From the IMG/VR virus record IMGVR_UViG_2671180432_000004: a stretch of 4,275 nucleotides of DNA. One strand, 5' to 3'. How positions within the stretch are numbered: the first letter of the stretch is position 1; each line of letters begins with the position of its first letter. This document shows positions 1-4,275 of this stretch, in pieces. The translations under genes were made by a program, and so were the position numbers. This DNA is from a virus (taxonomy: Duplodnaviria; Heunggongvirae; Uroviricota; Caudoviricetes). Under the pieces are notes generated by a model. The model had not been told where the DNA came from. It did not search any database and worked only from the letters and a program-made list of their open reading frames with translations.

Positions 1-167
1 ACGGCAGCAAGCCAGTAATGGGTTAAGTGATAACAGGTGTCTGGAAATATAGGGGCAAATCCAGCGTTCATCAGCCCCCGCATTGCCGACAGGATCACAG
101 ACGGGGGGCGCAACTGGTTGTCGTTCAACTGGCCCAGCTACCGTTCTTGTATCAGAGGTGTGGCTGC

Positions 168-1466
168 ATGACAACACCAGTCTGGCGTAATGATGACCTG
201 GAAGGCGCTGTCATTGGCGCATTCTTTCTGCGTGGGGCAGATCATGAAGTGATGGATATTCTGATCACACTACCGGCGGACATTTTTTCTGTACGAGCGT
301 ATCGGGATATCTACACAGGCATCTGCAGACAGGCCCGTGTTTCAGGAGTGATTGACCCCGTGCTGTTGTGTAATGAGATGCCGGAACTTGCCCCGGTGAT
401 TACTGATACCGGGCGTAAAACCTGGGTGAAGTCTTCACTGGAGCACTATGTTGCAGCGTTGCGGCGCAATGCCGCACTGCGCGATGCAGAAAAAACACTG
501 AATGAGGCGCTGCAGAAATTACGTGATGCGCATACCTGTGAAGCAGCTGAAGATGCCCTGAAGGATGCGCAGAACATGATGGTCACACTGTCGACAGGAA
601 AGGGCGTCATTCAGCCGGTACATATTGATGATGTGCTTCCGGAAGTGGTTGAGCGTGTTGAATGCCGGAATCAGGGGCTGGAGAAATCCAGGACGTTGAT
701 GACCGGTATTGATGAACTGGACGCAAAAACAGGCGGTATGGAGCCCGGAGACCTGGTATTCATTGCCGCCCGTCCTTCGATGGGGAAAACCGAACTTGCG
801 CTGGACATCATCGACAAGGTGACTGAGCAGGGGCATGGTGTGCTTCTGTTCACCATGGAGATGGCGAACATCCAGATTGGTGAACGTATGGTGTCTGCGG
901 CTGGAGGGATGCCAGTATCACGCCTGAAATCTGTGGCTCACTTTGAAGATGAAGACTGGGCGCGTTTCTCACAAGGGGTGGGGCGGATGACCGGGCGCAA
1001 TATCTGGATGGTGGACCAGGCGAACCTGACCATTGATGAGATATGCGCAACAACGAAACACCATCTGATTAAACATCCGGAAACGGCGCTGGTGGTGGTT
1101 GATTATCTCGGGCTGATAAAAACCCGAACCACGGGGCGTCATGACCTTGCCGTGGGTGAAATCTCAAAGGGGCTTAAAGGCCTGGCAAAATCCGGTGGTT
1201 TTCCGTTGATTGCGCTGAGCCAGCTCTCCCGCGGTGTGGAGTCCAGATACAACCCGGATACACAGGCTACAGGCATAGCAGAAATTAATATCACGAAACA
1301 ACGTAACGGTTCTCTGGGGACGATTTACCGGCGTTTTTATAACGGACATTTTCTGCCTGTGGACCAGGAAAGCGCACAGGTTCTTTCCACCCCAATGCGG
1401 CAGCCCCAGCCGCGCAGATACAGCAATACACGTACCGACAGCAGTAAGATGGAGCGTTTCTTTTGA
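168..1466 (+). CDS. DnaB-family replicative DNA helicase (phage replication module)
   Basis: Long ORF in frame 3. Walker A motif AARPSMGKT (about nt 766-792) and Walker B-like ALVVVDYLGL, plus EDEDWARF and GIAEINITKQRNG motifs, align with E. coli DnaB as recalled. The N-terminal DLEGAVIGAFFL block matches the DnaB N-terminal domain. ATG at 168 has an AGAGGTG Shine-Dalgarno 7 nt upstream. The ORF track starts at GTG 27, but that extension (HQPPHCRQDHRRG...) does not look protein-like, so the start is uncertain. Confidence 0.88.
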   Translation: MTTPVWRNDDLEGAVIGAFFLRGADHEVMDILITLPADIFSVRAYRDIYTGICRQARVSGVIDPVLLCNEMPELAPVITDTGRKTWVKSSLEHYVAALRRNAALRDAEKTLNEALQKLRDAHTCEAAEDALKDAQNMMVTLSTGKGVIQPVHIDDVLPEVVERVECRNQGLEKSRTLMTGIDELDAKTGGMEPGDLVFIAARPSMGKTELALDIIDKVTEQGHGVLLFTMEMANIQIGERMVSAAGGMPVSRLKSVAHFEDEDWARFSQGVGRMTGRNIWMVDQANLTIDEICATTKHHLIKHPETALVVVDYLGLIKTRTTGRHDLAVGEISKGLKGLAKSGGFPLIALSQLSRGVESRYNPDTQATGIAEINITKQRNGSLGTIYRRFYNGHFLPVDQESAQVLSTPMRQPQPRRYSNTRTDSSKMERFF

Positions 1467-1477
1467 ACAACCAGACA

Positions 1478-1720
1478 ATGACTTTTACCTCTGAACAATT
1501 GCGTAAACACGCGCAGGAAATGTTGCGACAGGCGGAACAACTGGAAAAAACAGGTGTAACAAAAGATGCCATTCGTCGGGATATGGTGCCAGCGCTCAGG
1601 GAACTGATGCAGGCGAAACATCGCGCACAAAAAGCGGTGGATGAGCTCGTTGATTGTGTGGCAGAGCTGGAAACCAAAGTTGGAAAGTTTGAAAAAATGG
1701 TGCAGGAGGTGCTGCGCTGA
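1478..1720 (+). CDS. Small hypothetical protein, predicted coiled-coil, nin-region-like position
   Basis: ORF between the helicase and rusA in the same orientation. Its stop overlaps the rusA start as TGATG (1718-1722), which suggests translational coupling. The sequence is charged and helical-looking (EQLRKHAQEMLRQAEQLEK...). Alternative start is TTG 1463, which has a GGAG 8 nt upstream; ATG 1478 has no obvious SD. Function unknown. Confidence 0.5.
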   Translation: MTFTSEQLRKHAQEMLRQAEQLEKTGVTKDAIRRDMVPALRELMQAKHRAQKAVDELVDCVAELETKVGKFEKMVQEVLR

Positions 1721-2091
1721 TGCGCCATGAGTTTATTTTACCTTATCCGCCGACGGTGAATACTTACTGGCGACGTCGTGGCAGCACATATTTTGTATCA
1801 AAAGTTGGTGAGCGTTATCGCCGTGATGTGACGCTAATTGTTCGCCAGCAGCGGCTGAAATTAAACCTGTCCGGAAGGCTGGCGATAAAGATTATTGCAG
1901 AGCCACCGGATAAGCGCCGTCGTGACCTGGACAATATCCTGAAAGCACCACTGGATGCGCTGACGCATGCCGGACTACTCATAGACGACGAGCAGTTTGA
2001 TGAAATCAATATTGTGCGCGGTCAGCTCGTTCCTGGTGGGCGACTGGGCGTGAAGATTTATGAAATCACAGGTGATAACGATGGCGCGTGA
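1720..2091 (+). CDS. rusA: Crossover junction endodeoxyribonuclease RusA (Holliday junction resolvase)
   Basis: 123-aa product with the LPYPP..N.Y.R N-terminal motif, DKRRRDLDN acidic motif, DALTHAG, IDDEQ and GGRLGV, all matching E. coli RusA (about 120 aa) as recalled. Sits immediately upstream of Q as in the DLP12 prophage. Confidence 0.85.
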
Positions 2092-2467
2092 TATTCAGCA
2101 GGTTATGGAACGGTGGGGGGCTTGGGCTGCAAACACTCATGAAGATGTATCCTGGGCGTCGATCGCTGCTGGTTTTAAAGGGTTAATTCCGTCGAAAGTG
2201 AAATCACGCCCTCAGTGTTCTGATGATGATGCAATGATAATTTGTGGCTGTATGGCCCGGTTGAACAAGAAAAATCAGGATTTGCACGATTTGCTGGTGG
2301 ATTATTACGTAGGTGGAATGACTTTTATGAGTCTGGCACGGAAACATGGGTGTTCGGATACCTGTATTGGCAAGCGCCTGCAGAAAGCGGAAGGGGTTAT
2401 TGATGGCATGTTGATGATGCTTGATATCCGGCTGGAGATGGACAGATACGTAGAACGAATTATGTAG
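2081..2467 (+). CDS. Q: Late-gene antitermination protein Q (short QuuD-like family)
   Basis: Product [23 protein letters not shown]...[20 protein letters not shown]...[23 protein letters not shown]...GKRLQKAEG matches my memory of the E. coli prophage antiterminator QuuD family (about 127 aa), including the cysteine cluster. ATG 2081 has AGGTGA 5 nt upstream and overlaps the rusA stop by 11 nt. The ORF track start at 2060 would add 7 residues not seen in the homologs I recall. Confidence 0.8.
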
Positions 2468-2471
2468 GTGC

Positions 2472-2502
2472 TTGACCAGACACATTGTCCGGGGCTATAT
2501 TC
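2472..2502 (+). promoter_or_regulatory. Candidate late promoter (pR'-like) immediately downstream of Q
   Basis: TTGACC (2472-2477) begins 5 nt after the Q stop, with TATATT (2497-2502) as the -10. The spacer is 19 nt, which is suboptimal. The position matches where pR'/qut lies in lambdoid phages. Confidence 0.3.
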
Positions 2503-2560
2503 CTCACGCGCCAGCAAAATCTGGCGTCGGGATTGGAACCCCGGATAGAGACCGCGACAG

Positions 2561-2587
2561 ACACACGCCGCGAGCGTGTTTTTTATT
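2561..2587 (+). terminator. Candidate intrinsic terminator (tR'-like)
   Basis: Hairpin ACACGC (2563-2568) / GCGTGT (2574-2579) with loop CGCGA, followed by TTTTT-A-TT. It lies about 60-80 nt downstream of the candidate promoter, which would give a short leader transcript. Confidence 0.45.
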
Positions 2588-2712
2588 GTCGTATGCACGC
2601 GCACATCTGAATTATGGTGGGGCGCATGGGGGAGCTGAAAAGCTCGCCGGTCGGTTTCCCGGTAGTTCCAACCCTGTGCGTCTCACCACCCGATGATTGG
2701 AACCTGACGGTG

Positions 2713-2741
2713 TTGACAGTTTCAGGTTTGCAGTTTACATT
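2713..2741 (+). promoter_or_regulatory. Candidate sigma70 promoter upstream of the ORF6N gene
   Basis: Perfect -35 TTGACA (2713-2718), 17-nt spacer, -10 TACATT (2736-2741; 4 of 6, with the conserved T, A and final T). Could be the promoter of the ORF6N gene or the true Q-modified late promoter. Confidence 0.4.
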
Positions 2742-2776
2742 TCCCCGCGGTGCTCAAAACACCTCGAAAGCGGTAT

Positions 2777-2804
2777 CCACACCCGATAGCCATGTGGTTT
2801 TTTT
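2777..2804 (+). terminator. Weak hairpin plus T7 tract (possible attenuator or terminator)
   Basis: CCACA (2777-2781) pairs with TGTGG (2793-2797) across an 11-nt loop, followed by seven T (2798-2804). The stem is weak, hence low confidence. Confidence 0.2.
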
Positions 2805-2947
2805 GTGTCCAGAATTCTTGGTTTATGACCGGGTGTGCGGCTAATACAATACCAGCAATGGAAATACGCCCGCCGACTTTCGACGGTTTTGAGCGCCCGG
2901 TCACCCTCTCAAAAGGGGTAAATCAAAATATTCGAAAGGACATGTCT

Positions 2948-3511
2948 ATGAATCGCACGTCTATTGAAAAACTCCCGTCACTTACGCATAACCATCTTCC
3001 TGTCATGACAACAGAGCTGCTGGCTGATTTGTACGGAACAGAGCGCCAGCGTTTGACAAACAATTTCAATCGAAACAAAGAACGGTTTATAGAAGGTAAA
3101 CATTTTTTCCTGATAGAAGGTGATGCGTTACGAGAGTTGAAGAACGAAAACTCTTTAAGAGTTTCTGTGAAAATTGCCCGTAACGTTCGCTCCCTCATCC
3201 TCTGGACAGAACGTGGCGCAGCCCGTCACGCCAAAATGCTCGAAACCGATCAGGCGTGGGAAGTGTTCGAAAAACTGGAAGACTGTTATTTCAACCAGAA
3301 ACAGCCACCAGCGGCACAAAACACATCTATCGAAAATGATGGATGCGCATTACTGAGCCACTTCGATAAACACGGTCAGGTTGAGTTCACGGAAAAGGTA
3401 CCCGCCGATGCGATGGTATGTACTCTGGAACGGTTTAAATTTTATCTGGAGCAACACGGGTGGATCGTTGCCCGTAAAGAGCAACTGGTGGAGCGGTTGA
3501 TGCGGTTTTAA
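2948..3511 (+). CDS. ORF6N/KilA-N-like domain protein (phage accessory 'moron' gene; antirepressor-like family), function unknown
   Basis: ORF with AGGA 7 nt upstream of ATG 2948 (ATG 2942 is an alternative). The N-terminal half (LPVMTTELLADLYGTERQRLTNNFNRNKERFIEGKHFFLIEGDALRELK...LWTERGAARHAKMLETDQAWEV) fits the ORF6N domain pattern as I recall it. The C-terminal 70 aa are unassigned. Spot counts give about 41% GC in the first 240 nt versus about 57% in a sampled helicase stretch. Followed by a strong intrinsic terminator. Confidence 0.7.
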   Translation: MNRTSIEKLPSLTHNHLPVMTTELLADLYGTERQRLTNNFNRNKERFIEGKHFFLIEGDALRELKNENSLRVSVKIARNVRSLILWTERGAARHAKMLETDQAWEVFEKLEDCYFNQKQPPAAQNTSIENDGCALLSHFDKHGQVEFTEKVPADAMVCTLERFKFYLEQHGWIVARKEQLVERLMRF

Positions 3512-3612: not shown

Positions 3613-3700
3613 ATACCTGAAAAACGGCACAGGACGTTAAACGTGCTGGTGGTCAGATGAGTTTGCAGATGTGATGACATATGGTTATTATTCTGCCTCC

Positions 3701-3777
3701 GGCCCTTTAGCTCAGTTGGTCAGAGCGAGCGACTCATAATCGCCAGGTCGCTGGTTCAAGTCCAGCAAGGGCCACCA
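3701..3777 (+). tRNA. tRNA with CAU anticodon, most likely tRNA-Ile2 (lysidine; ileX/ileZ-like), automated tools would call tRNA-Met(CAT)
   Basis: Cloverleaf folded by hand: acceptor GGCCCTT (3701-3707) / AAGGGCC (3767-3773), anticodon loop CTCATAA with CAT at 3735-3737, T-loop TTCAAGT, discriminator A and encoded CCA (3775-3777). Nearly identical to E. coli ileX as recalled. Confidence 0.85.
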
Positions 3778-3778
3778 A

Positions 3779-3855
3779 CCACCACTAGCTCATCCGGATA
3801 GAGCATCAACCTTCTAAGTTGACGGTGCGAGGTTCGAGTCCTCGGTGGTGGGCCA
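3779..3855 (+). tRNA. tRNA-Arg (anticodon UCU, reads AGA)
   Basis: Acceptor CCACCAC (3779-3785) / GTGGTGG (3845-3851) is a perfect 7-bp stem. D-stem GCTC/GAGC, anticodon stem TCAAC/GTTGA, loop CTTCTAA with TCT at 3813-3815, T-stem CGAGG/CCTCG with loop TTCGAGT, discriminator G, encoded CCA (3853-3855). Only 1 nt separates it from the previous tRNA. Confidence 0.85.
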
Positions 3856-3857
3856 GC

Positions 3858-3933
<76 letters not shown>

Positions 3934-3936
3934 TAT

Positions 3937-4011
<75 letters not shown>

Positions 4012-4045
4012 GCGAGATTTGAGACGAAGGTTGTTATTTGCACTG

Positions 4046-4059
4046 ACACAATATTGTGT
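4046..4059. repeat. Perfect 14-bp palindrome ACACAATATTGTGT
   Basis: Read directly from the sequence, about 35 bp downstream of the tRNA cluster and about 130 bp upstream of an open frame that starts at ATG 4189. Confidence 0.45.
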
Positions 4060-4275
4060 GGGAATGTCTGACTCCTTACCATCTCCTGTTCTGTGATGTT
4101 GTTTTGTTGCAGTTCCAGTGCTCTTTTTTCAGCACCAGAATGGTGCATTGTCGGTCAGGTTACGTAGTGAACCTCTGGCAGGGGACTGATGATTCATCAT
4201 TCTGGTGTTGTAAATATCTCTTCGGACAACTTACAAAATATTCTAAGCAAACCCCGGGAACACACTCTTAACTGC

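Follow-up and report, generated by a model that had tools for sequence, protein, structure and literature searches.

In phage lambda, nine annotated genes fill the 3.6 kb between P and Q. Almost every junction in this nin region (ren and ninB to ninI) overlaps, including an 11-nt overlap of ninF and ninG. The nin terminators tR2-tR4 lie between the replication genes and Q and make the expression of Q dependent on N. A shorter arrangement is found in phiP27 (L19, L20 and L21) and in Stx1a-converting phages (e.g. LC567819), where the helicase gene is followed by a single gene for a hypothetical protein of 85 aa and then directly by Q. In PhiR49_2 and Stx2 phages, ydfU is placed between the 85-aa gene and Q. 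UTAK-5 has rusA at this place, and in 90-3040 the small gene is likewise followed by rusA and then by Q.

The gene block and its relatives

We analysed a stretch of 4,275 nt of viral DNA (hereafter the window), which has the same gene order as UTAK-5. Four genes follow one another on the + strand, co-oriented and with zero intergenic space between them. These are a gene for a DnaB-type replicative helicase (168-1466; stop codon TGA 1464-1466; 432 aa in this copy), a small conserved gene homologous to L20 of phiP27 (1463-1720; 85 codons from TTG 1463, stop codon TGA 1718-1720), the gene for the Holliday-junction resolvase RusA (1720-2091; ATG 1720, stop codon TGA 2089-2091; 123 aa) and the gene for an antiterminator Q of the Q21/PF06530 type (2081-2467; ATG 2081; 128 aa). 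The + strand of the window also carries an ORF6N anti-repressor gene and four tRNA genes. Read from the sequence, the interval from helicase to Q comprises two genes in 614 nt. It occupies the same position as the nin region of lambda, between the replication genes and Q, and its overlapping junctions are of the same style. RusA is the functional counterpart of lambda NinG/Rap as a junction resolvase. With a probability of roughly 80%, we consider the block to be a short early-right segment in the nin position of a phiP27-like lambdoid prophage, which has a non-lambda replication module and is present here as a decayed copy identical to that of Shigella-type chromosomes.

The left part of the block is closely related to phiP27 and the Stx1a phages, with which it shares 94-95% protein identity in helicase and small ORF, the TTGA overlap between these two genes, the TGATG motif at the stop of the small ORF and the family of the Q protein. 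The differences lie downstream and within the helicase. In phiP27, Q is located directly 3' of the small ORF, whereas the window has a rusA-Q module from position ∼1720, and the helicase of the window is 31 residues shorter. In line with this, homology with phiP27 and the Stx1a phages ends at position 1724, and from position 1717 onward the window matches a widespread rusA-Q module (3253 of 5426 E. coli genomes match part of the query). In other prophages this module follows ydfU/DUF968. An example is the ydfU(DUF968)-rusA-Q module of E. coli FORC_042, in which rusA and Q have ∼88% DNA identity with the window and the annotated 11-nt rusA/Q junction, ATGGCGCGTGA, is identical. In FORC_042, however, DUF968 and a short spacer precede rusA, while in the window rusA is joined to the small ORF by TGATG. 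The sequence TGATGCG at the joint is common to both partners. By these comparisons, the block is a mosaic, in which a helicase and small-ORF module of the phiP27 type has been joined at TGATG to a rusA-Q module.

Both products of the right-hand module are readily assigned. RusA scores 56.1 bits against PF05866 (cut-off 22.8), matches phrog_34 with an E-value of 1.6e-54 and can be aligned gaplessly with the E. coli protein (1Q8R; E 5e-22). Its residues D69, D71 and D90 correspond in this alignment to the catalytic acidic residues of E. coli RusA, D70, D72 and D91. As this aspartate triad is retained, the RusA of the window is probably active. Q matches Phage_antitermQ (PF06530) with 176.4 bits (cut-off 26; E 2e-52), with residues 3-119 covering profile positions 2-118, and residues 9-86 match the Q21 structures 6P18 and 6JNX (E 3e-7). 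Downstream of Q, the + strand shows a promoter-like site (2472-2501; TTGACC-18-TATATT) and a terminator-like site nearby (2563-2579; a stem-loop plus T-run). Both are recognised at consensus level only, and a late promoter followed by a terminator that Q can override is what is expected for a Q antiterminator.

The helicase is less well preserved. Apart from a 93-nt gap, the window shows 100% identity with published complete Shigella-type chromosomes on both sides of the gap (L010 and L012-L014). This gap is a clean in-frame deletion between positions 1247 and 1248 of the window relative to helicases of 463 aa; no repeat flanks the deletion site. The 31 missing residues are conserved in all four aligned relatives (L001, L002, L003 and L007), and the segment that contains them presumably holds, as in E. 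coli DnaB, the region of the DNA-binding loop and arginine finger. The helicase matches Pfam DnaB_C with an E-value of 3e-49, but only over positions 2-187 of the 255 in the profile; the C-terminal RecA-like domain is thus incomplete. Judged by its sequence, the helicase of the window is very likely inactive. In the Shigella-type chromosomes, an IS3-family element, the final 63 bases of which are present in the window, abuts the helicase gene, with nothing phage-like further upstream, and some chromosomal copies contain a second IS inside the helicase gene. By the IS cut upstream and the deletion in the helicase, the prophage is a remnant, from which the upstream early promoter for the block appears to have been lost. 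With an internal deletion in the helicase and an operon cut by the IS, it is doubtful that this copy of the block is expressed from a phage early promoter.

Coding status, start codons and junctions

The small ORF was compared in eight loci from four genera, comprising the Shigella-type sequence of the window, prophages and phages of E. coli and one phage each of Klebsiella and Hafnia. In all eight, it is exactly 85 codons long, with zero indels. Pairwise dN/dS values range from 0.08 to 0.24, and the differences are enriched at third codon positions (11 of 14, 15 of 20 and 42 of 81 in three comparisons). The first-pass annotation had treated conservation as a coding frame in related prophages as decisive for the small ORF, and by dN/dS and third-position bias the frame is indeed conserved. 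The pattern of substitutions shows that purifying selection acts on the 85-codon ORF, which is thus a real gene.

Where this gene starts had been left ambiguous between TTG 1463, which is preceded by a GGAG, and ATG 1478, which has no Shine-Dalgarno (SD) sequence. That description of the two sites is correct, and the ambiguity itself can be lifted by comparison. The GGAG (1451-1454) is located 8 nt 5' of TTG 1463, within the 3' end of the helicase gene, and has an anti-SD duplex energy of -6.2 kcal/mol, set against a median of -2.8 kcal/mol for the background of the window. The value upstream of ATG 1478 is +0.4 kcal/mol. Moreover, a clade with 66% identity (L007 and L003) has ACC or ATC in place of ATG 1478 but retains both TTG and GGAG; here the next in-frame start would cost the protein its conserved TPEQLR motif. 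At the codon that corresponds to TTG 1463, the Klebsiella homologue starts with ATG and the Hafnia homologue with GTG, and PGAP annotates the gene as a hypothetical protein of 85 aa. The agreement of SD energies, the lost ATG 1478, the Klebsiella and Hafnia starts and the PGAP call identifies TTG 1463 as the start codon. It also speaks against the annotation of phiP27, in which the small ORF begins at the internal ATG and encodes 80 aa. The start of Q can be placed in a similar way. An alternative ATG at 2060 is ACG in two relatives (L001 and L030) and the Pfam match opens at residue 3 of the protein as read from ATG 2081, which is therefore the start of Q.

At the junction of helicase and small ORF, the stop codon TGA 1464-1466 and the start codon TTG 1463-1465 overlap by 4 nt in the sequence TTGA (1463-1466). 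This junction is identical in five loci (L001, L002, L003, L007 and L008), and the GGAG upstream of it is kept in the same five. The small ORF and rusA overlap by 1 nt in TGATG (1718-1722). TGATG is kept in seven of the eight compared loci, whether rusA, Q or another gene comes next; the Hafnia locus has TGAAT in its place. The third overlap, of 11 nt (2081-2091), extends from the ATG of Q at 2081 to the rusA stop codon TGA 2089-2091 and is conserved in other prophages. On rereading the sequence, we found TTG 1463, TGATG at 1718-1722 and the rusA/Q overlap at 2081-2091 exactly, to the base, where they had been reported at first pass. Overlapping stops and starts are the rule in operons of this kind, and their occurrence here is not in excess of expectation.

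The SD sequences of the two downstream genes differ widely in predicted strength. An AGGAGG (1704-1709), located 10 nt 5' of rusA within the 3' end of the small ORF, has a duplex energy of -11.6 kcal/mol, which falls under the 1st percentile of the window. Upstream of ATG 2081 of Q there is only a weak AGGTGA (-3.8 kcal/mol). A scan for intrinsic terminators, to which Rho-dependent sites are invisible, found no terminator-like site on the + strand between 221 and 2562. In addition, positions 1300-2200 contain only short two-copy repeats in place of iterons or an origin, and there are zero matches to Rfam families of structured RNA in 1463-2091.

Together, these features suggest how the block may work. 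As there is no terminator-like site in 221-2562, helicase, small ORF, rusA and Q would probably be transcribed on one transcript with the replication genes, and the expression of Q would meet no lambda-style nin terminators. The small ORF would be translated via the TTGA overlap and its moderate SD, and rusA from its own strong SD. Initiation at Q, in turn, would mostly be achieved by ribosomes that terminate at the rusA stop codon, 11 nt past the weakly SD-ed ATG. The weak SD and the closeness of this stop codon make Q the gene that would most likely depend on coupling. The tight coupling from helicase through to Q that was implied at first pass is thus plausible from the gene geometry, for Q above all, although in the decayed copy of the window the chain "from helicase" is partly vestigial.

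Could the compactness of the block itself result from decay, such that nin genes were lost from a defective prophage and the present arrangement is a remnant with no working design? The copy in the window is degraded, as seen in the IS that abuts the helicase, the 93-nt deletion and the second IS within the helicase of other copies. However, the interval is equally short or shorter in complete phage genomes (phiP27, the Stx1a phages and PhiR49_2), which were deposited as Stx-converting or isolated phages and in which the junctions are intact and overlapping. In line with this, a survey of the early regions of Stx phages reported very short cI-to-stx regions (PMC8951638). Decay is therefore a very improbable explanation. 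As the intervals of phiP27 and the Stx1a phages are even shorter, the compact interval from helicase to Q is an ordinary trait of the lineage of phiP27-like phages. The early description of the interval as very compact is accurate in that it holds two genes against the nine annotated in lambda, but this is not unusual, as the phiP27 and Stx1a phages carry a single ORF at this place. Scarcely credible is the idea that the 85-codon ORF is no gene, being either open by chance or set opposite the true gene, a 145-codon antisense ORF (1291-1728). None of the eight loci interrupts this antisense frame, its dN/dS is also low (0.08-0.48), and the small ORF lacks a Pfam family. But the third codon positions of the antisense ORF coincide with those of the sense frame, which explains its low dN/dS, and the antisense dN/dS exceeds that of the sense frame in seven of eight comparisons. 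The sense frame, on the other hand, begins and ends at the same places in all four genera, with a length of exactly 85 codons, and has an SD and a significant heptad pattern. Its product has protein homologues down to 26% identity, also as a domain of longer proteins, whereas the antisense product is a low-complexity string of Ser, Cys and Ala. We reject the antisense ORF as a frame-register artefact of the shared third positions.

Family and possible role of the small protein

The small protein matches phrog_2565 (E 5.3e-31), with residues 2-84 aligned to positions 121-203 of the 204 in the profile, and phrog_2539 (E 9e-16). This means that the whole small ORF corresponds only to the C-terminal ∼83 positions of profiles that are ∼204 and ∼229 positions long. 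The long members of both PHROGs have an extra N-terminal domain, which is absent from the small ORF of the window. An exhaustive HMMER search of 1.8 billion representatives returned only 27 clusters for the family. Most of these proteins measure 80-93 aa, and several of 133-249 aa carry the domain at their C-terminus, among them the long forms of 173-249 aa. The N-terminal domain that the long members have in common has no match in Pfam. The two domains are encoded by separate, overlapping ORFs in one phage contig (L024) and are fused in another contig (L022). Two residues, P43 and D64, do not vary within the family.

Between residues 44 and 85 of the small protein, 11 of the 12 a/d heptad positions are hydrophobic, a pattern equalled by 0 of 5000 shuffles. 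AlphaFold (AF2) predicts an all-helical protein with a pLDDT of 84-85. Two runs differ in the arrangement of the helix, which is modelled as a hairpin in one and as a single helix of 75 residues in the other, the latter with an alignment of 19 sequences. By its heptad periodicity, the small protein is predicted to be a helical coiled-coil.

The first-pass annotation could assign no function to this protein, and our homology and structure searches likewise yield no characterised relative. Scans of the small ORF and 19 further family members with Pfam, NCBIfam and PADLOC returned only coiled-coil noise; for the small protein itself, the anti-phage defence profiles of PADLOC gave E-values of at least 0.002 at about 13-16 bits. 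A profile search of the PDB with the small protein retrieved only designed helical proteins and GCN4, and Foldseek found no match with E < 0.6 for the hairpin model in either the PDB or BFVD. No mention of the accessions of the small protein was found in the literature. The small ORF has the same position as lambda ren, directly after a replication gene, yet the two sequences are unrelated (hhalign probability 0.2%, E 0.31), and identity with Ren is rejected.

The small ORF is present in 349 of 5426 complete E. coli genomes (about 6%). Within E. coli, its surroundings are constant. It adjoins the replicative helicase in 40 of 40 rows sampled evenly from the 349 genomes, and it overlaps the helicase stop codon in every E. 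coli phage examined. Distant homologues, however, have a variety of upstream neighbours, which include a P2 GpA-type initiator (Phage_GPA), an HTH_36 initiator (also in Hafnia), DUF551 (immediately before Q), N (in the early-left operon) and a large DNA methylase. What homologues of the small ORF have in common is that temperate phages carry them in early operons, in many cases at the boundary between replication genes and Q, without a constant partner.

What might such a protein do? Our tentative proposal, which draws on structure prediction and domain architecture, is that it may be a non-enzymatic, self-associating coiled-coil protein, an early accessory factor that would act by protein-protein contact and be carried along with replication or early modules. 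In the two-domain proteins of other phages, the same domain would form the C-terminal end and mediate oligomerisation. A different role is suggested by the constant position of the small ORF behind the helicase within E. coli and by its overlap with the helicase stop codon. The protein could be dedicated to the DnaB-type helicase of the phage as its cofactor, for instance as a subunit for loading or regulation, or could inhibit the helicase of the host; with a cofactor, the 4-nt overlap would set the stoichiometry of helicase and small protein. The constant adjacency fits such a helicase-specific role as well as it fits simple linkage. Outside the E. coli clade, though, the homologues follow other genes than the helicase, as described above, and fusions of the domain to a different N-terminal domain also occur. 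We therefore favour a portable accessory gene over a helicase-specific subunit, and consider the dedicated helicase partner unlikely. A broader version has the 85-aa protein as a hitherto unrecognised accessory factor of the replication module, which would physically contact either the DnaB-type helicase of the phage or the replisome of the host and, in other settings, different initiators. We give this version slightly less credence still. If it were true, the protein would, by means of its coupled translation, adjust the loading of the helicase or the time at which late transcription comes under Q, and the two-domain relatives would represent a DNA-tethered form of the protein.

Meaning for the phiP27-like phages

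The helicase, small-ORF, rusA and Q block is an ordinary feature that is already known and present in public annotation, and it carries little weight beyond annotation. What our analysis adds is a settled start codon, proof that the small frame is conserved as coding sequence and the placing of its product in a family of portable coiled-coil domains without an assigned function. In practice, the annotation of phiP27 L20 and its homologues should begin at the TTG in the overlap with the helicase stop codon, which gives 85 aa, and not at the internal ATG. The C-terminal domain of PHROG 2565/2539 is carried by Shiga-toxin phages and by ∼6% of complete E. coli genomes, and has a consistent place in early operons. 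This makes it a reasonable, if not urgent, target for a knockout. For the lineage as a whole, only a few hundred bases separate Q from the replication genes, which leaves no room for lambda-style nin terminators. The short interval may affect the speed with which the late genes are expressed after induction, among them the toxin genes in the case of Stx phages.

The IS-interrupted upstream edge and the helicase gene

Bases 1-63 of the window are the 3' terminus of an IS3-family element, probably IS2 to judge by its terminal repeat. In L010, one of the published Shigella-type chromosomes matching the window, the element spans ~1.3 kb (3269-4497). Base 64 is the first with phage homology, indicating that the prophage was cut just upstream of the DnaB-type replicative helicase gene. 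The genomes carrying this IS-cut prophage (L010 and its kin) lack the genes for loader, initiator and repressor.

The helicase gene itself lacks 93 nt at 1247/1248 relative to L010 and L012-L014, to which it is otherwise 100% identical. The deletion is clean and in-frame, is not flanked by a direct repeat, and costs the DnaB C-terminal domain 31 conserved residues. It could be an assembly artefact or a true strain variant.

The small coiled-coil gene and its relatives

A 145-codon ORF on the minus strand (1291-1728) covers the entire small gene between the helicase gene and rusA, and its frame is uninterrupted at each of the eight homologous loci. It stays open because its third-codon positions are shared with the sense frame, which contains neither Tyr codons nor NNT-CAN codon pairs. 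The antisense frame is not a gene.

The small-ORF family has undergone gene fusion or fission between two phage contigs. L022 encodes a two-domain protein of 199 aa in a single ORF (411-1010), immediately 3' of an N-like gene, whereas in L024 the corresponding two ORFs, of 122 and 81 aa, share a 19-nt overlap (3651-4246). Both versions lie in the early-left operon, and their N-domains are 75% identical. A frameshift, programmed or mutational, could underlie the difference.

The region downstream of Q

Downstream of the antiterminator gene Q lie four tRNA genes (Met-CAT, Arg-TCT, Thr-TGT and Gly-TCC; 3701-4011), placed like those of Stx phages, where tRNAs precede the toxin genes. Lysis genes, and no toxin gene, follow the cluster in the source genomes.

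The first feature 3' of Q is a late-promoter-like site (2472-2501). The leader continues with c4-a1b1 targets (2495-2547; Rfam), isrK (2508-2584), a terminator (2563-2579), a C4 antisense RNA (2610-2693) and sRNA-Xcc1 (2827-2910). These features immediately precede an ORF6N anti-repressor gene (2948-3511; 187 aa as called in L009-L014), which probably starts at ATG 2948, with the Shine-Dalgarno sequence AAGGA (-5.3 kcal/mol), and not at ATG 2942. The leader (2472-2910) together with the ORF6N gene looks like an antisense-controlled anti-repressor module inside the late transcript, comparable to P1 immI and Gifsy isrK.
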